Under the pieces are notes generated by a model. It saw only the letters and a list, made by a program, of their open reading frames with translations, ran no database searches and had not been told where the DNA came from. This document shows positions 1,408 to 10,816 of a stretch of DNA of 11,206 bases, piece after piece (position 1 is the stretch's first letter; each line of letters begins with the position of its first letter). The DNA lies in the IMG/VR virus record IMGVR_UViG_2630968808_000005, positions 1 through 11,206 of that record; one strand, 5' to 3'. This DNA comes from a virus. Taxonomy: Duplodnaviria > Heunggongvirae > Uroviricota > Caudoviricetes. Made by a program: the position numbers and the translations under genes.

Positions 1408-1797
1408 CTAACATTTTCTTTTTACTTTTCCAACAAAAGCTTTGGTTGAATCCATATTTCCATAACCGGAAATGGTTTTTGACATTAAAACTGTTCCAGT
1501 AGGATGTATTACCCATGAGTCGATAACGCGTTGAGTTTCGCCATTCGCGCCGATTCCTATGATGGAGTTTTTAGACAATGCTTTGTAAGCCATGCCGCCC
1601 GCATCTGTCCCAGAATATGTGATGCTGGCATCTTCACCGTTTGTCTTAATGATGAATGTTCCACTAAAACCATCTTCTTCCGGATGGAAATTATTTCGTT
1701 CTGAATAGCTTATTCCGCGCATATCTCCAACGACCCAGCACTCTGCTGTAGCCCCAAAAGATATGAATAAGAACATAGCAGTAAGAAATTGCTTCAC
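1408..1797 (-). CDS. Hypothetical secreted/periplasmic protein (129 aa) with an N-terminal signal peptide; function unknown
   Basis: GTG start (plus-strand 1795-1797) preceded on the minus strand by a near-perfect Shine-Dalgarno TAAGGAGGT (plus-strand 1802-1810 complement) with ~5 nt spacing. Hydrophobic N-terminus MKQFLTAMFLFISFGATA followed by a predicted cleavage site before ECW. Two Cys in the mature part, one right after the signal peptide and one as the C-terminal residue. No family recognised. Confidence 0.6.
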   Translation of the reverse strand: MKQFLTAMFLFISFGATAECWVVGDMRGISYSERNNFHPEEDGFSGTFIIKTNGEDASITYSGTDAGGMAYKALSKNSIIGIGANGETQRVIDSWVIHPTGTVLMSKTISGYGNMDSTKAFVGKVKRKC

Positions 1798-1914
1798 GCC
1801 AACCTCCTTAGTTTTGAGCAGGATACCATGAAAAAAGTAAACATCTTTTGCCTACTTCACATTTGAATGGTTTGTCATTAGGATGTTTCCGGTTTTTTAA
1901 ATATGGAAATTGAT

Positions 1915-2334
1915 ATGAAGAGGATTATTGGCGTCGTTGCTGGCGCTATATTGTTATCTGGGTGCGCAACTATTGTTGGTGACGAAACGCAGCTTGTGCA
2001 AGTGAACAGCAATCCTTCCGGTGCGAGCTTTAAGGTAAAAGACGAATCAGGCGTGATTGTTGCGCAAGGTAAGACCCCGCAAGGAGTAACTCTTGCCAAG
2101 TCAGATGGTAGTTATTTTGGCAAAAAGAGCTACCAGATCACTATGGAAAAGGATGGGTACGAACCAGTTACCCTGCCAATCAAAGCCAATGCTAATGGCT
2201 GGTATATTGGTGGAAACCTTGTGTTTGGTGGGTTAATTGGTTGGCTTGCTGTAGATCCTTTTAATGGTGGGATGTATACCTTGAAGCCAAAAGAGGCAAA
2301 CGCATCTCTTATACCATCAACAAAGCAAGACTAA
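1915..2334 (+). CDS. Hypothetical lipoprotein (~139 aa from the ATG at 1915; the ORF track start at 1903 is an alternative) with a PEGA-like beta domain and a C-terminal glycine-zipper hydrophobic segment
   Basis: Signal peptide plus lipobox MKRIIGVVAGAILLSG|C. The middle region (GASFKVKDESGVIVAQGKTPQGVTLAKSDG...YQITMEKDGYEPVTLPIKAN) resembles the PEGA-domain pattern. The C-terminus WYIGGNLVFGGLIGWLAVDPFNGG is Gly-rich and hydrophobic. A hairpin plus T-tract terminator follows directly at 2343-2366. Confidence 0.6.
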   Translation: MKRIIGVVAGAILLSGCATIVGDETQLVQVNSNPSGASFKVKDESGVIVAQGKTPQGVTLAKSDGSYFGKKSYQITMEKDGYEPVTLPIKANANGWYIGGNLVFGGLIGWLAVDPFNGGMYTLKPKEANASLIPSTKQD

Positions 2335-2342
2335 TAAATAGG

Positions 2343-2366
2343 ACCCACCTTCAGGTGGGTTTTTTG
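2343..2366 (+). terminator. Rho-independent terminator after the lipoprotein gene; the mnt stop codon sits in its loop
   Basis: ACCCACC (2343-2349), loop TTCA, GGTGGGT (2354-2360), followed by TTTTT (2361-2365). Confidence 0.65.
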
Positions 2367-2602
2367 TACAAAACCTTCAGCGTATCAAACACCATCTTCT
2401 TAACAAGCTCTGACTGCTCATCAGCGAGTCGTTCTGCATCGTCGCGATATCCAGTCACAGGCGATGGTTTTGATAGAGCATCTTGGACGATTTGTAACAA
2501 CTCGGAGTTCATTGATCTCCCATTCGCCTCCGCCCTGAATTTTAATTTCTCCCTTACTTCCATAGGCATACGGAAGTTAAAGTGCGGATCATCTCTAGCC
2601 AT
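2351..2602 (-). CDS. mnt: Mnt repressor (immI maintenance repressor), 83 aa
   Basis: The translation MARDDPHFNFRMPMEVREKLKFRAEANGRSMNSELLQIVQDALSKPSPVTGYRDDAERLADEQSELVKKMVFDTLKVLYKKPT matches P22 Mnt (ribbon-helix-helix N-terminus plus C-terminal tetramerisation helix) at near identity as I recall it. It is divergent from arc across the operator region. Confidence 0.92.
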   Translation of the reverse strand: MARDDPHFNFRMPMEVREKLKFRAEANGRSMNSELLQIVQDALSKPSPVTGYRDDAERLADEQSELVKKMVFDTLKVLYKKPT

Positions 2603-2692: not shown

Positions 2693-2854
2693 ATGAAAGG
2701 AATGAGCAAGATGCCGCAGTTCAATTTGCGGTGGCCTAAAGAAGTATTGGATTTGGTCCGCAAGGTGGCGGAAGAGAATGGTCGGTCTGTTAACTCTGAG
2801 ATTTATCAGAGAGTAATGGAAAGCTTTAAGAAGGAAGGGCGCATTGGCGCGTAA
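2693..2854 (+). CDS. arc: Arc repressor, 53 aa
   Basis: [53 protein letters not shown] is near-identical to P22 Arc as I recall it. The start is the ATG at 2693 preceded by GAGGTG; the upstream 21 codons in the ORF track (from 2630) overlap the operators and promoter and are not coding. Confidence 0.92.
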
Positions 2855-2923
2855 AGTTGAAGCCCCAACTGCGGGAACAGTCAGGGCTTCGGTTGTCAGT
2901 AAATCCGTGGAGAAAAACCAACA
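2855..2923 (-). ncRNA. sar: Probable sar antisense RNA (small antisense regulator of ant translation)
   Basis: In P22, sar is a ~68-nt RNA transcribed leftward from a promoter inside the 5' end of ant, across the ant ribosome-binding site into the arc-ant spacer. Here a minus-strand -10 TATACT (plus 2930-2935) lies at the ant start, and the 69-bp interval back to the arc stop fits that size. Ends are inferred, not mapped. Confidence 0.45.
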
Positions 2924-3825
2924 TGAATAGTATAGCAATTTTAGAAGCAGTGAACACCTCTTATGTACCATTCAACGGTCAGCAAATTATCACCGCCATG
3001 GCTGCCGGAGTTGCATATGTTGCGATGAAGCCAATCGTTGAAAACCTTGGAATGAGCTGGTCAACGCAGCAAACAAAACTCATGAAGCAGATTAGCAAAT
3101 TCAACTGTGTTCATATGAACATGGTTGCCGCTGATGGGAAGCTTCGTAAGCTACTCTGCCTTCCTTTGAAGAAGTTAAATGGATGGCTGTTCAGCATCAA
3201 CCCTGAGAAAGTTCGTGCTGACATCCGTGATAAACTGATTCAGTACCAGGAAGAATGCTTTACTGTACTGCATGACTACTGGACAAAGGGAAAGGCAGAA
3301 AATGCACGTAAGAAAACATCTGTTGATGACAGGACTCCGCTTCGTGATGCTGTAAATATGCTAGTCAGCAAAAAGCATCTAATGTACCCAGAAGCTTATG
3401 CAATGATTCATCAGCGTTTCAATGTGGAAAGTATTGAAGAGCTTGATGCATCTCAGATACCGCAAGCCGTAGAGTACATCCACAGGGTAGTGCTTGAAGG
3501 TGAATTTATCGGCAAACAAGAGAAGAAAACCAACGAGCTTTCTGCAAAAGAAGCAAACAGCCTTGTATGGTTATGGGATTATGCCAACCGCTCACAGGCA
3601 TTATTCCGCGAACTGTATCTGGCGCTAAAACAAATTCAATCGAACTATTCCGGCAGATGCTACGACTATGGCCATGAGTTCTCGTATGTTATCGGAATGG
3701 CGAGAGACGTTTTAATCAATCACACACGAGATGTTGATATTAATGAGCCAGACGGACCAACGAATCTTTCCGCATGGATGAGACTTAAGAATAAAGAATT
3801 ACCTCCTTCAGTACATAACTACTGA
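2923..3825 (+). CDS. ant: Antirepressor Ant, 300 aa
   Basis: ATG at 2923 preceded by GGAG (2909-2912). The position directly downstream of arc, the 300-aa size and the N-terminus [21 protein letters not shown]... match P22 Ant as I recall it. The N-terminal extension from 2857 in the ORF track is rejected. Confidence 0.88.
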
Positions 3826-3868: not shown

Positions 3869-3925
3869 TGCCCAAAATTCATCGTAGCCATGCTTCGGTG
3901 ATTCCTTGTATCTGGAGCAAATTAA

Positions 3926-6094
3926 ATGACAGACATTACAGCCAATGTGATCGTATCAATGCCTTCGCAACTCTTCACTATGGCGCGTTCTTTTAAAGCC
4001 GTAGCTAATGGCAAAATTTATATCGGTAAAATTGACACTGACCCGGTAAATCCAGAAAACCAGATTCAGGTTTATGTGGAGAACGAAGACGGCTCTCACG
4101 TTCCTGTTTCGCAACCAATCATCATTAACGCTGCCGGCTATCCGGTATACAACGGACAGGTGTCGAAATTTGTCACCGTTCAGGGCCACAGCATGGCTGT
4201 ATACGATGCGTATGGCGTGCAGCAGTTTTACTACCCTAACGTGCTGAAGTACGACCCGGATCAGTTCAAAACTCAGTTAGAAGCCGCACAAGGGGCGAGC
4301 CTGGTAGGGTATCGCTATAAAGACGCTCCTAACGCTACTGTGCGTAAAGTCTCTGACGTTCTGGACGAGCGTGTAAGCCTTTGGGATTTCCACTGTGACT
4401 CAAGCGGCAACGTCATCCAGCCCGGCCCTAATGTAGACAGTCGTCAATATATTCAGAATGCCATTGATTATCTGAATGCACATGGTGGTGGGACTCTGGT
4501 TATCCCACCAGGGAAGTGGTGGCTGAATTCGTATGGCCGTCCAGAAAAGATTTCCAGCTATGCTGGAGTTATCCAGCTACTCAGTAATGTTGACATCTAC
4601 TTTGAAGCGGGCAGCACCGTCGCTCTGACTACGTTCTTTAATGAAAAAGCGTATTGCGTTTTCTGTGGTTTTAATGGGAACGACCCGGCAACGTCTGCAT
4701 CGCTGAATAACTGCCATATTTATGGTTCGGGCATTATCGACTGCGGGCCTACAAACAAACAACCAATCGGTAGCGCCCTGTGCTACGCCATTGGTACAGG
4801 TAGGTCTTATGATTGTAGCATCCGTGGCATTACCATCACTAATGGAGACCTTACCTGGGCGGCAACTCTGGGCTGGAATGGCTACGGCAATAACACAGTA
4901 GTAGATGGGGTGACGGTAACTAGCTGCAAAAAGACTGATATTGATCGCAACGTGGATCAGTCGTTGTTTTATGTAGGTTGCCCTTATTCTGGTGTCAGAA
5001 ATTGCTACATGAACCCGTCGGCAGATACTGGTTTCGCAAACAGGGTCTCTGCTGGTGTAGAGCTACATCAACATAATACATTCTGCGATAACAATCACAT
5101 GACTGGGTTGATGCGCGGTGTCTATGTGGTTATGCACGGTGCAGAAGCGGCTGGACAAGGTTTGTACATGTACAATATTAGCGTGTGCAATAATACCGCA
5201 AGTGTCGCGGGGCAATTTGTCACCCTGACAGCAGACCAGAAGGTGGCGATCACCCATATACATAACGTGATTATTGCTAATAATATCGCTGTTATTGAAC
5301 CGCCTAAAGATCCAAATCAGGAAATAGGCCGAATATTCGTTAACAGCGAGATGTGGAAGGACACTCCCAGGGACTCTAACACAGAGCGGGTGCTCGTGAC
5401 TGGTAACATTTTCCATTGCCCGATAACTCTGCCAGGGAGCGTCTTCTTTGCTTATAGAATTAGTACCCGTAACTACCAATTCTCAGGGAACATGGTGGAT
5501 GCTCAAAAAATCATGTCAGGGGACGGGCTTGGGGTAACAGATCAACTTGAGCTTCGCAATATCATATGGGATTCATCGAATAGCCTGGGGAACTCATGGC
5601 TCGGCCAGCGGGGTAAAAACACCAACCTATTTGATATTTATGCAGCAGCGGTAGTTAGCTGCCATTTTGATATTACATTGCCGTATGAGGATAGCTCAAT
5701 TGCTCATGTGTTTTACACGCCTGATGGCTGTAGTGTGGATTATACCGTGGTTAAGGTTAATGCTGAGCGAGTGCCGGAGGGCGTCGTAGGTGTAAGGATG
5801 TCTCAAGCAAACCTGGAGAAGGTTTCTAACCATGTGAGTTATCCAGTCACGATTAGCTTCGGAAGTTACGACGCAAATGGCGCTACGTTGTGTTTTAGCG
5901 TAGATACTACATATGGATGGGTAGGTTCTGCTACTGCGATAAGTCACAGTGACAACACAAACATAACGCCTCCTGGTTGTTATGCCGCTACAGAAACCGA
6001 TCAACTTCAAGGAGTGGGTTGGTCGCATACGAGTGGGGCTAAGTCATACAAGCAGAGGGTGCTATTACGTAGCCGATCAACCCTTCCTGTCTAA
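3926..6094 (+). CDS. Tailspike protein, 722 aa: P22-type N-terminal head-binding domain fused to a different beta-helix receptor-binding/depolymerase body
   Basis: Residues 1-~120 ([78 protein letters not shown]...VLKYDPDQF) match the conserved head-binding domain of P22 gp9 and relatives. The remainder does not match the P22 endorhamnosidase as I recall it, and the protein is longer (722 vs 667 aa). GGAG Shine-Dalgarno at 3914-3917. Confidence 0.9.
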
Positions 6095-6146
6095 GGCGTG
6101 ATGGATAGTTTATTGTAGCAGCTTGTTTTACTGAGAATCTTCACGT

Positions 6147-6177
6147 AATAAAAAATCCCCGCTAGGCGGGGATTTTC
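6147..6177. terminator. Bidirectional rho-independent terminator between the convergent tailspike and gtrC genes
   Basis: ATCCCCGC (6155-6162), loop TAG, GCGGGGAT (6166-6173), flanked by AAAAA upstream and TTT downstream; the U-tract is better for the minus-strand (gtrC) transcript. Confidence 0.65.
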
Positions 6178-6194
6178 AATCTTTTATAACACAA

Positions 6195-7658
6195 TTAATT
6201 CATGCAATCTTTTTTGCTAAAATCAACAACTATATTTACCCCTTCATGGTATAGCTTATAGTCTTGATTACTGGTTACTAACTTATAATTGCAAAAGTCC
6301 CTGAGTGAGCTATTGACTATTTCACTATTATACCCAGGGTCCATTTGCTTCAAACCGTTTATTCCCATGTAATAATGCGCCCACATCCAGTTTCCAAAAT
6401 AACTAACTACTAGCCCATTTAGCAATGGGAAATTCTTGGATGAGTTTGTAAGTATGCTTGATCTGGGTGGCTCACCATTAAAAATAATATAGTTTGTATT
6501 GTAATCGAATTCTTTCGTATCTTCTTTTATTGAATCTATTATTTGTTTATCAACAGAGGATTGATGCTTGCTGGAATTAGCATATGCGCATGTAAAAATA
6601 ATCATGTATGCATACATCGGCAGAACAACCAATGACGGTACTTTGCTTTCTTTGCACGCCAGAGTCGCCAGGAATAAGACAAAAAGCAAATAGGAGCCAA
6701 CGCCTATGTACAACCGTGAAAAACCTACCATTGGGTTATCAAGTGGTAAAAGAGATCCTATCGTGGCGACTGGAGTCACAATTATTACAAGTAAAGAAAC
6801 AACAAAAATAAACCAACCAAACTTACCTTTATATCCTCTTAAATACCTATAAGAAATTACCAAAGCGGAAAGTAAGGAGATTGCAATAAGAACTGGCATG
6901 ATGAATTCCCCCATGCCATTAGGTAGTATTACCCCTTCTATATGATAGTAATAGGATTTTAAGTTACTGATTACTGTGTTCAGAAGATCAGCAGAAACCC
7001 TTGGGTGGTTAGCACTGTGAGAGGACTCCAAAGTCAAAGGCAATATCACCTTCATATAGAGAGCCAGCCCTAACAAAGTGCTTAAAACGCGTATAAACGA
7101 TAATTTTATTATTTCAAAAGGAGATGCCAGCTTATAAACATCATAAAAGAATAGCAGAGATGTAAAAATAAGTATTATATTTACAGATGCTTGATATAAA
7201 CACATTACACCAACCACTAAAGCCACCTTAATTAAAAGGTTGATATAATGATTATTTGATAAAGTAAATAAAAAAGAAAAAGACAGAACAGCGGAAAACA
7301 GGATTGTCAGGCTATCAAACCTGTAACTAACAACCTCAACAATAAATGGATTTATTAAAAAAGACAAAGGGAGCAGGAAAAGCCCTTTTTTGTTATTGAA
7401 AAACTCTTTGCCAAATCTATAAAAAACCCATGACAGCATGGCACAAGCAACAAGGAGCGGAGCAGGGGCAATGTCTGCCATTGTGCCACTAAACATAATA
7501 ACAGACATCAATATATCAGACAGAGGACGCCCATCTTCCCACCAAAATCTGTAACCTAGCGTAGACCGCCCAATATCGTCAATGTAATAAATGTTTGCTA
7601 ATATGATGGGGGCCACCAGTAGCAAAATAATGATGAAATATTCCTTTATTTGTTTCAC
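6195..7658 (-). CDS. gtrC: GtrC-type serotype-specific O-antigen glucosyltransferase (polytopic membrane protein, 487 aa); specificity unknown
   Basis: Third gene of the gtr operon, with its start overlapping the gtrB stop (ATGA). Highly hydrophobic with many predicted TM segments and a C-terminal soluble domain. Visibly AT-rich compared with its neighbours, as is usual for gtrC genes. Assignment is by synteny and topology; GtrC proteins share little sequence similarity. Confidence 0.7.
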
Positions 7659-8578
7659 GCTTCATCCCCATTTTTTAAAATATATCTAGGCCTGTTCTTG
7701 GATTCGGTGTAAATCCTCCCGATGTACTCACCAAGCACCCCAATGCCAATAAGTTGTACGCCACCAAGAAACAGAATAGAAACCAGCAATGAGGGGTAGC
7801 CTCGCACCGGATTGCCAAAGGCGATAGTGTCTATAATCATCCATGCACCATAAATGAACGACAGGCCTGCTACCAACAATCCAATATAAGTCCACATGCG
7901 CAGAGGGAAGGTAGAGAAACTGGTTATCCCCTCAAGGGCAAGGTTCCATAACTTCCAGCCATTGAATTTTGAATCACCGGCAATCCTTTCAGCCCTGGTG
8001 TATTCAACGATATCAGTGTTCCCGCCAACCCAGCTAAGAATGCCTTTCATAAAGAGGTTGCGCTCAGGAAGAAGCTTGATGTTTTCCACCACCGCTCGGG
8101 ACATCAGGCGGAAATCACCTACATTCTCCTCAATTTTAGGATTGCTTATTTTATTGTGGAGCTTATAGAACCACTCAGCCGTTTTTCGCTTCAGTCTGCC
8201 ATCCGTTGAGCGGTCAGATCGTTTAGCAAGCACCATGTCAGCACCTGCTAGCCACTTTTCAATCAGATGAGGAATGACCTCAATCGGGTCTTGCAGGTCA
8301 ACATCAATAGGAATAACGGCATCACCTGTTGCATGGTCTAACCCTGCAAACAATGCGGGTTCTTTACCAAAGTTTCGTGTAAATGACAGCGGAACAACTA
8401 GAGGATCTGAAACAGCCAGAGCGTTAATGATTGACTCCGTAGCGTCTTTGCTGCCGTCATTTATGAAAACAATTTCCACTTCGTATGGCTTCAACTCTTC
8501 GAATTCACGTACCGTTTTATAAAAAATTGGTATTGCTTCTTCTTCATTGAAGACAGGAACTACAAGAGATATCTTCAT
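7655..8578 (-). CDS. gtrB: GtrB bactoprenol glucosyltransferase (GT2 family, UDP-glucose:undecaprenyl-phosphate glucosyltransferase), 307 aa
   Basis: N-terminus [20 protein letters not shown], the DxD-type motif in [10 protein letters not shown], and two C-terminal TM helices are typical of GtrB/DPM1-like enzymes. The start overlaps the gtrA stop. Confidence 0.9.
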
Positions 8579-8937
8579 TTCGCATCCCTAAAGACAATGA
8601 ACTTTGAATAGACGAAACCGCACACCAGGCTGATGGCGGAGAAGGTGACAAGAGTGACAATTGGAGGAAGTGAACATCTATCAGCAGCCCATCCAACAGT
8701 AGCACTCAGTGTTCCCATGAACCCGACATATAACATGTAGCGCATCGTTGTAGTTGATGCTTTGAATGTGAATTTTGCATTCGCGAAGAAGCTAAAACTC
8801 ACAGCCACAACAAAACCTGCGAAGTTTGCAAGAGCTTGGTTTGTATGCGCGGCATAGATACAAACACCAAAAACCACCCAGTGTATAAGGGTGTTCAGCA
8901 CTCCAATCGAGGTGTACTTTGCAAATAGCTTTAACAT
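8575..8937 (-). CDS. gtrA: GtrA flippase (small 4-TM membrane protein, 120 aa)
   Basis: 120-aa hydrophobic protein with four predicted TM helices; first gene of the gtrABC operon, with the size and position typical of GtrA. Confidence 0.85.
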
Positions 8938-9649
8938 TTCTTCTATCAGCTAATAATCAAAGGCATGAAGTCTATCATCCAAGTCTCAATCGATCGATAC
9001 TTGCGTTAGTTGATGAGAAAAAACTCTGGCACACAAGGCTTTGCAATGGCTTGCAAGGTTTTGTTTCTATCAGATAGTGGTTAAGGTGGATCACTCCACC
9101 TTTTCATCAAGCCAATCCGCCCACCACTGCATCATTTCTCTGCGCTTAACGTAGTGGATGCATCACTATCACCCTGTAATGGCTTATTACTGGTTTGCAG
9201 ACAGGTAGGCATGAACATATGCCTGCGCATGAAGATGGAACTAGTCCGGATGCGATATTTTTGGTGATCACGTACATCATCAACGAAGTGCGTTATGGTG
9301 AGTTTGATGACTACCCGCTGAAGTGAAAATTGTGTTGTGTACCAAATTGCGTACCAAACTAAAATCACAAATCATGAAACCCTTGTTCATGGCGGTTCTC
9401 AGGGGTGTTGCGCGTAATCGTGAAACAAAAAGGTAGATTGTTGCTTACCGTCATTCATCATTAGGTTAAATCCGTTATTTCTGCTGTCTGCCAGAGTATC
9501 AAATATCACCGTACTAATCAGCTTTAGCGCCACAAGATCATGTCAGATAAAAATGAGAGGGTAGTCACATTTTCTTGCACTTTATTCCAGCCAGTTCATA
9601 AGTATTTCCGTAAAAAGAACAGCTATTTGAAACTCCTGAGGGTTTGCTG

Positions 9650-10816
9650 TTGAAACGCCGACTTATTATTGCTGCTTCTTTGTTCGTTTTTAACTTATCG
9701 TCTGGTTTTGCGGCGGAAAACATTCCTTTTTCACCTCAGCCTCCAGAGATTCATGCCGGGTCCTGGGTACTGATGGATTACACCACCGGACAGATCCTCA
9801 CCGCGGGTAATGAGCATCAACAGCGCAATCCCGCCAGCCTGACAAAGCTGATGACGGGTTATGTCGTGGATCGCGCTATCGATAGTCATCGCATTACGCC
9901 AGACGATATTGTCACCGTGGGGCGCGATGCGTGGGCGAAAGATAATCCGGTGTTTGTCGGTTCTTCACTGATGTTTTTGAAAGAGGGCGATCGCGTATCG
10001 GTACGTGATTTAAGCCGTGGTTTAATTGTGGATTCCGGAAATGACGCTTGTGTTGCACTGGCTGACTATATTGCCGGTGGGCAACGGCAGTTTGTTGAAA
10101 TGATGAACAACTATGCCGAGAAGCTGCATCTCAAGGATACGCATTTTGAAACAGTGCATGGTCTGGATGCACCTGGCCAGCATAGCTCGGCTTATGATTT
10201 AGCTGTGCTTTCTCGCGCTATCATCCACGGCGAGCCCGAGTTTTATCATATGTACAGTGAGAAAAGCCTCACCTGGAACGGTATCACTCAGCAAAACCGT
10301 AACGGGTTATTGTGGGATAAAACCATGAATGTTGACGGCCTGAAAACGGGTCATACTTCTGGTGCCGGGTTTAATCTCATTGCTTCGGCTGTAGATGGGC
10401 AGCGTCGTCTCATTGCAGTGGTAATGGGGGCTGACAGTGCAAAAGGTCGTGAGGAAGAGGCAAGAAAATTACTACGTTGGGGGCAACAAAACTTTACTAC
10501 GGTGCAAATTTTGCACCGTGGGAAAAAGGTCGGAACGGAACGCATCTGGTATGGCGATAAAGAAAATATCGACCTGGGAACGGAACAAGAGTTCTGGATG
10601 GTGCTACCGAAAGCCGAAATTCCACATATCAAAGCCAAATATACCCTTGATGGTAAAGAACTCACCGCGCCAATTAGCGCCCATCAGCGGGTAGGGGAAA
10701 TTGAACTTTACGACCGTGATAAACAGGTGGCGCACTGGCCGCTGGTTACCCTGGAATCTGTCGGGGAAGGCGGCATGTTTTCCCGCCTGAGTGATTATTT
10801 CCACCATAAGGCCTGA
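9650..10816 (+). CDS. dacD: D-alanyl-D-alanine carboxypeptidase DacD (PBP6b), host chromosomal gene
   Basis: Signal peptide, the SxxK active-site motif (ASLTKLMTGY), SGN (DSGND) and KTG (LKTGHTSG) motifs of class-C low-molecular-weight PBPs. The sequence matches E. coli DacD as I recall it. Start chosen as the TTG at 9650 (GAGG at 9638-9641, ~8 nt spacing, 388 aa); the ORF track's TTG at 9644 is the alternative. Confidence 0.9.
   Translation: MKRRLIIAASLFVFNLSSGFAAENIPFSPQPPEIHAGSWVLMDYTTGQILTAGNEHQQRNPASLTKLMTGYVVDRAIDSHRITPDDIVTVGRDAWAKDNPVFVGSSLMFLKEGDRVSVRDLSRGLIVDSGNDACVALADYIAGGQRQFVEMMNNYAEKLHLKDTHFETVHGLDAPGQHSSAYDLAVLSRAIIHGEPEFYHMYSEKSLTWNGITQQNRNGLLWDKTMNVDGLKTGHTSGAGFNLIASAVDGQRRLIAVVMGADSAKGREEEARKLLRWGQQNFTTVQILHRGKKVGTERIWYGDKENIDLGTEQEFWMVLPKAEIPHIKAKYTLDGKELTAPISAHQRVGEIELYDRDKQVAHWPLVTLESVGEGGMFSRLSDYFHHKA

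Follow-up and report, generated by a model that had tools for sequence, protein, structure and literature searches.

The 11,206-nt stretch analyzed here (IMG/VR virus record IMGVR_UViG_2630968808_000005, hereafter the window) covers the right end of a P22-like prophage and the adjoining bacterial chromosome. At this end the prophage carries a gtrABC operon that we interpret, with a probability of about 0.88, as a canonical three-component Gtr O-antigen serotype-conversion cassette, in identity as well as in mechanism. This interpretation is based on the gene content and order, the gene junctions, the Pfam assignments, the similarity of GtrB to its counterparts, the invariant residues and the topology of GtrC, and the prophage context. 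By itself, such an operon is a routine prophage serotype-conversion cassette. What is new is the mobility of the module that it forms with the neighboring tailspike gene, the coupling of its GtrC to one tailspike family, and an association with the O18 antigen of Escherichia coli.

Organization and composition of the gtrABC operon

The three genes are co-oriented on the minus strand in the order gtrA-gtrB-gtrC (from 8937 to 6195), with a 4-nt overlap at both junctions and a terminator past gtrC (coordinates in Table 1). The original prediction, made from the DNA letters and a list of open reading frames (ORFs), had placed a gtrABC operon at the end of a prophage; the ORFs, the Pfam matches, the surrounding prophage genes and the P22-like layout all agree with it. 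The three ORFs lie where they had been predicted, and that of gtrC is intact, without internal stop codons. The start/stop overlaps had been described as ATGA at both junctions, which is correct for gtrA/gtrB, whereas gtrB and gtrC overlap in GTGA. A GTG is the start codon of gtrC in our annotation: a TGA is located two codons upstream in the same frame, and the next in-frame ATG is codon 51, where a start would remove the first transmembrane segment (TM1) and the invariant residues D27 and D28 of the protein. In close relatives, this junction reads either GTGA or ATGA. Shine-Dalgarno (SD)-like sequences accompany the coupled starts of the operon. The spacer between gtrC and the convergent tailspike gene (6095-6194) is 100% identical across all the loci possessing this gtrC.

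The low GC content attributed to gtrC was confirmed (0.359, with the same value of 0.359 at third codon positions, against 0.444 for gtrA and 0.448 for gtrB), but it is not distinctive. The gtrI, gtrII, gtrIV, gtrV and P22 gtrC genes and two other E. coli gtrC genes have GC contents of 30.8-33.4%, next to gtrA and gtrB genes of 42-45.5%. Since every gtrC compared is equally or more AT-rich, we discarded low GC as a sign of something unusual; AT-richness is a trait of the gtrC family and not of this locus. The separate origin that had been deduced from it is nevertheless a fair reading on other grounds, because the homology to other gtrAB operons (that of E. coli strain 2-1 at the same insertion site, and that of P22) stops at 7674, 16 nt before the gtrC start. 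This breakpoint at the gtrB/gtrC junction also agrees with the predicted contrast between conserved gtrA and gtrB and a variable gtrC.

Predicted functions of GtrA, GtrB, and GtrC

The Pfam matches of the three products all exceed the gathering cut-offs. GtrA matches GtrA_DPMS_TM (PF04138, 1.8e-13) over profile positions 1-117 of 117 and is a small membrane protein, a putative flippase of undecaprenyl-phosphate-glucose (Und-P-Glc). The identical 120-aa protein is found on at least 1000 contigs, where the sources name it GtrA/bactoprenol-linked glucose translocase. GtrB matches Glycos_transf_2 (PF00535, 1.9e-30), is 92-93% identical at the amino-acid level to the GtrB of SfI/SfII/SfIV/SfV and 88% identical to that of P22, and aligns over its full length with the structure of Synechocystis GtrB (5EKP, residues 2-302, E 5e-89). 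It ends in two hydrophobic segments. From these similarities, GtrB is identified as an undecaprenyl-phosphate glucosyltransferase composed of a glycosyltransferase family 2 (GT2) domain and two C-terminal transmembrane helices.

GtrC matches Pfam Glucos_trans_II (3.1e-16). A search of its sequence against the PDB retrieved no match among the solved structures, and no NCBIfam model matched GtrA, GtrC or the tailspike. The AlphaFold model of GtrC, obtained from 80 homologues (pLDDT 96, pTM 0.94), confidently predicts a glycosyltransferase of the GT-C fold; a Foldseek search with this model returned nothing significant. About 10-11 hydrophobic segments are distributed over residues 1-360, followed by a soluble domain (361-487). 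Six residues (D27, D28, R31, D115, Y155 and Q156) are invariant in the 80 homologues, down to ~22% identity. The first three fall in the motif YYIDDxGRS immediately past TM1, and the acidic DD pair is predicted to sit in the first periplasmic loop.

In the Gtr model, Und-P-Glc is the product of GtrB; once flipped by GtrA, it is the donor from which GtrC transfers glucose in the periplasm (PMC7685785). By analogy with this established model, we infer the same chemistry for the window operon. GtrB, facing the cytoplasm with its GT2 domain, would make Und-P-Glc from UDP-glucose; GtrA would carry it across the inner membrane; and GtrC would attach the glucose, in the periplasm, to a single defined sugar of the O-unit. 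Transcription as one operon would end at the terminator shared with the convergent tailspike gene.

Sequence relationships and distribution of GtrC

The typed proteins compared directly with GtrC were GtrI, GtrII, GtrIV, GtrV and P22 GtrC, a set to which GtrX, GtrIc and the other Salmonella families do not belong. In BLASTP, no significant similarity to GtrI, GtrII, GtrIV or GtrV was detected (E > 1), and P22 GtrC was 25% identical (E 7e-32). A megablast of gtrC against 50,697 phage records gave no match, and tblastn against the same records recovered only P22-type GtrC proteins, the best at ~26% identity, and no Shigella phages. Identity with a typed GtrC of known linkage, which had been named as one outcome that would overturn the prediction, was rejected by these three comparisons: the window gtrC differs from all the typed genes compared.

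Among 5,426 complete E. coli genomes, four carry a gtrC relative (76-78% protein identity, 78% at the DNA level) and none the exact gene. The exact protein is found in draft E. coli genomes and in metagenomes, among others in the assemblies GCA_000809145.1, GCA_038073555.1, GCA_040146085.1, GCA_017729455.1, GCA_019702025.1 and GCA_042713615.1; its 90% cluster has 31 members and also holds sequences labeled Enterobacter roggenkampii and Pseudescherichia. In a library of 1.84 billion representatives, 1,038 members of the wider family were recovered at E ≤0.001; one representative exceeds 50% identity, and the next reaches 38%. By these comparisons, GtrC is a member of a rare, untyped clade. Relatives at 83-90% and at 45% identity were also observed in Salmonella and in unidentified enterobacterial contigs (L015/L016, L017, L018, L022).

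As to the linkage specificity, none can be transferred from the typed GtrC proteins compared, in agreement with the original prediction. However, the accompanying statement that it cannot be told from the sequence was slightly too pessimistic, since the genomic context points to O18, as discussed below.

A mobile module of tailspike and gtrCBA

The gene convergent to gtrC encodes a P22-type tailspike of 722 aa with a head-binding domain (Pfam Head_binding, 3.5e-66) and a beta-helix receptor-binding/endoglycosidase domain of the HK620 family (HK620_9_C, 1.5e-15). Its residues 110-715 match the HK620 tailspike structure 2vji (E 3e-142), and with HK620 gp9 it shares 50% identity over the whole protein, but 41.5% when the receptor-binding domain is taken alone. 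The catalytic residues of the HK620 tailspike are D339 and E372 (PMC8217332), and their counterparts are kept in the window protein, together with the motifs NVDQS and VELHQH. The protein is therefore predicted to be an HK620-family tailspike endoglycosidase. HK620 gp9 is an endo-N-acetylglucosaminidase specific for O18A1/O18A, but, with only 41.5% identity between the receptor domains, this specificity is not transferable to the window tailspike.

The original prediction had linked this tailspike to gtrC, and the comparison of loci supports the linkage. In blastn searches against the fetched loci, three of them (L003, L006, L011) match the window from 3804 or 3883 to 9064 at 98.7-99.1%, and three others (L008, L007, L010) match the module at 88.8-95.5%, the L010 contig ending at 7777. 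The right end falls at 9064 wherever the locus reaches so far, and the sequence outside the module differs. A look-up of the exact GtrC protein located ten places, and in 10 of the 10 it lies beside this tailspike type, in contexts that include dacD, bio/ybhB and two different integrases. Our comparisons thus indicate that a 5.2-kb module, composed of the tailspike gene, gtrCBA and the gtr upstream region, moves as a unit between P22-like prophages and occupies at least three genomic contexts. The locus is a clean example of the exchange of a tailspike and gtr module between phages with different integrases.

The module is not homogeneous in its divergence. Across the ten contexts, gtrC and the adjacent terminator spacer hardly vary (99.9-100% identity). 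Unlike gtrC, gtrA and gtrB fall to ~79-92% DNA identity in L008, L010 and L007, and the tailspike beta-helix of L008 has only 64-76% DNA identity to that of the window, yet 86% protein identity. This block of near-identity around gtrC (~5880-8080) suggests either a recent recombinational spread or a mosaic replacement of the tailspike around it.

Beyond the exact allele, a GtrC relative of 90% identity adjoins a tailspike 69% identical to that of the window, and the relatives of 76-78% identity adjoin tailspikes that are near-identical to that of HK620 up to about residue 240, similar up to about residue 420, and diverged thereafter. Two relatives are located in chromosomal islands without a tailspike (for instance between flagellar genes in L022), and one further relative lies at the end of a short contig. 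Thus, to judge from the loci compared, this GtrC clade adjoins HK620-family tailspikes wherever a tailspike has been retained, and the pairing is real at the family level.

In the original prediction, tailspike and gtrC probably form a matched pair in which one recognizes the O-antigen and the other would mask it. A serious competitor, to which we would give a little less than even odds, is that the two genes form a host-range module fitting one O-antigen backbone and no exclusion pair; the glucose would then leave the tailspike of its own phage unhindered and serve another end, such as antigenic variation or defence against other phages. HK620 itself infects a host with the glucosylated O18A1 antigen. 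Its gp9, the closest characterized tailspike, cleaves O18A1 with its glucose as well as O18A (PMC6024685), and masking should therefore not be assumed for this tailspike family. In addition, loci with the same gtrC allele (100% DNA identity) have tailspikes whose receptor domains diverge by as much as ~30% in DNA and 14% in protein. In contrast, for TSP1 of phage EP75, which is HK620-like, O18A is a substrate and glucosylated O18A1 is not (PMC8217332); a "Gly to Phe" position relating to the glucose pocket has been described for this protein. Masking also has a precedent in Salmonella BTP1, whose prophage GtrC is reported to shield the O-antigen against the tailspike of its own phage and to prevent superinfection by that phage (PMC4413052). 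The linkage of gtr and tailspike in every phage-context copy of the GtrC clade examined likewise speaks against a mere host-range module.

Association of the GtrC clade with O18

The four complete genomes with a GtrC relative (MB19, JSMCR1, E3 and LR-31) all carry O18 wzx/wzy, which are present in 69 of the 5,426 genomes overall. The relatives occupy two insertion sites: bio/ybhB in MB19, E3 and JSMCR1, within a degraded prophage whose tailspike is truncated and which contains an IS1, and argW in LR-31, within a P22-like prophage with a full-length tailspike. At both sites, the gtr operon adjoins an HK620-like tailspike. These are the closest loci to the window in complete genomes (GtrC 76-78% identical over the full length, gtrAB 84-98% in DNA), differing from it by the ATG start of gtrC instead of GTG, by their insertion sites and by a diverged tailspike receptor domain (only ~36% identical); their GtrC is annotated only as "glucosyltransferase domain-containing protein". 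Isolate 602, the sole complete genome with DNA similarity to the receptor domain of the window tailspike, is also O18; its tailspike is 62% identical, and its prophage is devoid of gtr. The O18:K1 extraintestinal pathogenic E. coli (ExPEC) strains such as UTI89 and IHE3034 possess the O18 cluster and lack the gtrC relative.

O18A1 is distinguished from O18A solely by an alpha-Glc-(1->6) branch, which is carried by the GlcNAc at the reducing end (PMC6024685). This is the kind of change that Gtr systems make. Moreover, between the window GtrC and the O18-linked relative, the putatively periplasmic loop 1 and the C-terminal domain are 82-83% identical and TM7-11 65%, as expected if the reaction is conserved. 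These observations suggest a glucose branch of the O18A1 kind, alpha-Glc-(1->6)-GlcNAc. The window GtrC could thus decorate an O18-type or closely related O-unit, a possibility that we consider less likely than not. More tentatively, and with considerable doubt, the GtrC clade as a whole (the window allele and its 76-90% relatives) could be the hitherto unassigned determinant of the side-branch glucose by which O18A1 is told from O18A, and perhaps also O18B1 from O18B. It would then travel on P22-like phages in one cassette with HK620-family tailspikes directed at the same O-antigen.

Several points weigh against such an interpretation of the locus. The rfb cluster of the host, ~20 kb beyond the prophage, lies outside the 11-kb contig. 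With the window GtrC, the O18-linked proteins share no more than 76-78% identity; between the receptor domains of the window tailspike and of the O18-linked tailspikes, the value is only 36-41%. The reported presence of GtrC proteins of at least 90% identity in Enterobacter roggenkampii and Pseudescherichia may mean that the acceptor motif is common to several O-antigens, or that it is not O18. Three of the four O18 genomes share one site, where clonality is possible, and the association may therefore amount to effectively two independent observations. Lastly, as regards expression of the cassette, the Dam/OxyR phase-variation signature of Salmonella gtr operons is only half present upstream of the window operon.

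Conjugate vaccines against ExPEC include O18A, whose difference from O18A1 is at present without a genomic marker (PMC12274568). If the proposal were true, the gene of the GtrC clade would tell O18A from O18A1 in genomes, a distinction that a 2025 vaccine-coverage study reported being unable to make (PMC12274568), and the tailspike/GtrC pair would be a natural system to establish whether one glucose decides phage entry. The modest value of the locus resides in a rare GtrC clade, its tight coupling to one tailspike family and a testable link to O18.

With respect to the O18 cluster itself, B1S11, MB19, JSMCR1, LR-31, E3 and isolate 602 have 100% identical O18 wzx-wzy DNA, in which wzy is annotated generically; in other O18 genomes, wzx-wzy is 99.5-99.9% identical and annotated as "O18ab/O18ac family". 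All four carriers of the gtrC relative fall in the subgroup with identical wzx-wzy.

Upstream region and expression of the operon

The 127 nt upstream of gtrA that travel with the module are 92-100% identical in all module copies including that stretch. They align with the gtr upstream region of P22 around the conserved GTATCGATC, whose GATC is kept in all four aligned sequences. The Dam/OxyR signature, four GATC sites in two pairs, was compared through these sites: two of them are located upstream of gtrA (8992 and 9089), against four in the aligned P22 region. Most Salmonella gtr operons bear a signature sequence associated with phase variation (PMC4413052). However, with the four-GATC arrangement reduced to two sites, phase variation cannot be deduced for the window operon.

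The cassette might also be silent or non-functional in its host, as the cargo of a defective prophage, by being switched off, or through lack of its acceptor sugar. The contig holds only the last ~9 kb of the prophage, no sigma-70-like promoter was detected directly upstream of gtrA in a consensus scan, and the related operon of the O18 strains MB19, E3 and JSMCR1 belongs, as noted above, to a degraded prophage. We nevertheless consider this unlikely. The three ORFs are intact and retain their SD-like sequences and coupled starts, the invariant residues of the catalytic loop are kept, and conservation of the upstream region extends to other gtr operons; the near-identity of gtrC and its terminator in ten contexts points in the same direction. 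Furthermore, degraded prophages have kept gtrABC intact, which points to selection acting on the operon.

Comparison with characterized gtr systems

The layout of the window is identical to that of P22, with tailspike gene 9, terminator, gtrC-gtrB-gtrA, promoter and attP in succession, and P22 GtrC, which confers O:1, is also the best phage-borne match to the window GtrC. Nevertheless, the two GtrC proteins are only 25-26% identical, the HK620-family receptor domain of the window tailspike is unrelated to that of P22, and the four-GATC Dam/OxyR signature of P22 is represented by two sites.

The Shigella flexneri cassettes of SfI, SfII, SfIV and SfV share with the window the order gtrA-gtrB-gtr(type) next to the attachment site, and presumably the mechanism. 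SfV and SfII also have a 4-nt overlap between gtrB and gtr(type), and the third gene of the Shigella phages is likewise AT-rich (0.32-0.33 GC). In contrast, SfI and SfV have tail-fibre genes beside gtr, whereas the window phage is P22-like with a tailspike, and the window insertion site, dacD, differs from those of the Shigella cassettes. More generally, many E. coli O-antigens have a glucose branch attributed to prophage gtr genes (PMC7685785).

HK620 resembles the window phage in the architecture of its tailspike, in the catalytic Asp/Glu pair and in the VELHQH motif, but has a Wzy-like gene (L013, 4984-6210, minus strand) in the slot where the window has gtrCBA. Related phages thus differ in the kind of O-antigen modifier that occupies the slot downstream of the tailspike. 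That the window "GtrC" is itself another modifier, such as an acyltransferase (the Salmonella family-2/BTP1 GtrC type) or a polymerase-like protein as in HK620, is very improbable: the proteins at this position are heterogeneous, HK620 has its Wzy-like "O-antigen modification protein" there, and BTP1 GtrC is reported to work without GtrA and GtrB (PMC4413052), but the window protein matches Glucos_trans_II with no acyltransferase family reported in its Pfam scan, has significant similarity to P22 GtrC, is modeled with a GT-C fold and a DD motif, and is translationally coupled to intact gtrA and gtrB.

Prophage context and insertion site

The window is 100% identical to the whole of contig JAQA01000030.1 (L012), which belongs to the E. 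coli draft assembly GCA_000809145.1. Its gene order is a gp16-type gene, two small genes, mnt-arc-ant, tailspike, terminator, gtrC-gtrB-gtrA, a phage arm, dacD and the start of sbmC (Table 1). From this gene content and the comparison of flanks, the prophage is assigned as P22-like (Lederbergvirus-type), inserted between sbcB and dacD, with the gtr cassette as its attR-proximal end.

Table 1. Features of the window, with coordinates on its 11,206 nt.
Feature	Position	Strand	Description and support
P22 gp16-type DNA-transfer gene	first gene in order		Pfam
mnt	2351-2602	-	immI region (Pfam)
arc	~2693-2854	+	immI region
sar	2855-2922	-	Full-length antisense RNA between arc and ant; Rfam RF00262 at 95.6 bits (gathering score 43)
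ant	~2923-3825	+	immI region
Tailspike + gtrCBA module	3883-9064		Predicted mobile module including the gtr upstream region; blastn against fetched loci
Tailspike gene	3926-6094	+	P22-type tailspike, 722 aa, head-binding and HK620-family beta-helix domains; Pfam, PDB
Terminator	6152-6176		Bidirectional intrinsic terminator common to convergent tailspike gene and gtrC; 11-bp stem AAAATCCCCGC-TAG-GCGGGGATTTT, T/A runs on both sides
gtrC	6195-7658	-	487 aa, GTG start, without internal stop; ORF, Pfam
gtrB	7655-8578	-	307 aa, ATG start; ORF, Pfam
gtrA	8575-8937	-	120 aa, ATG start; ORF, Pfam
gtr upstream region	8938-9064	-	Putative promoter/regulatory region travelling with the module; sequence comparison
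Phage arm	9065-9193		Seen only in prophages inserted at dacD; extends to the attR junction near 9194; sequence comparison
dacD	9644-10816	+	Chromosomal gene (PBP6b) on the bacterial side of the insertion; Pfam Peptidase_S11 9.5e-105, PBP5_C

The phage arm is present only in prophages of the same site (L001 at 90.8%; L004, L005 and L009 at 100%) and is missing from the module copies at other insertion sites. Compared with other E. coli chromosomes and with the flanking sequence in the record of Stx2 phage 1717, the chromosomal match begins at 9194, which places the junction ~260 nt beyond gtrA. The region is annotated dacD/sbmC in 5,419 E. coli genomes. A tRNA scan of the window found none, and a tRNA as integration site was accordingly rejected within it. 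A 78-aa ORF (9132-9368, minus strand) crosses the region of the junction between phage arm and chromosome.

The sbcB-dacD interval is a prophage hot-spot (L001, L026 and the Stx2 phage 1717 record). Strain 2-1 has there a P22-like prophage whose tailspike/gtrC pair differs from that of the window; in JBEHAAB-19-0176 the occupant is a lambdoid prophage, and in O157:H7 it is Stx2c phage 1717. In some genomes, a pseudogene remnant annotated as "S24 family peptidase/HumD" is located just upstream of dacD. The dacD-sbmC allele of the window is unusual, with a best match of 99.1% among the 5,419 genomes and all others at or below 98.4%; the nearest neighbor by this allele has another prophage at the site.

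At the opposite end of the window, the immI region is complete and of P22 type, including the sar RNA. Of the two small genes between gp16 and mnt, the first (1408-1797, minus strand) encodes 129 aa, beginning like a signal peptide and lacking Pfam matches; the second (1903-2334, plus strand) encodes 143 aa, its N-terminus (LSGC) resembling that of a lipoprotein, and has only a weak PEGA match. In strain 2-1, the equivalent slot is occupied by a gene annotated as "Rap1a/Tai family immunity protein".

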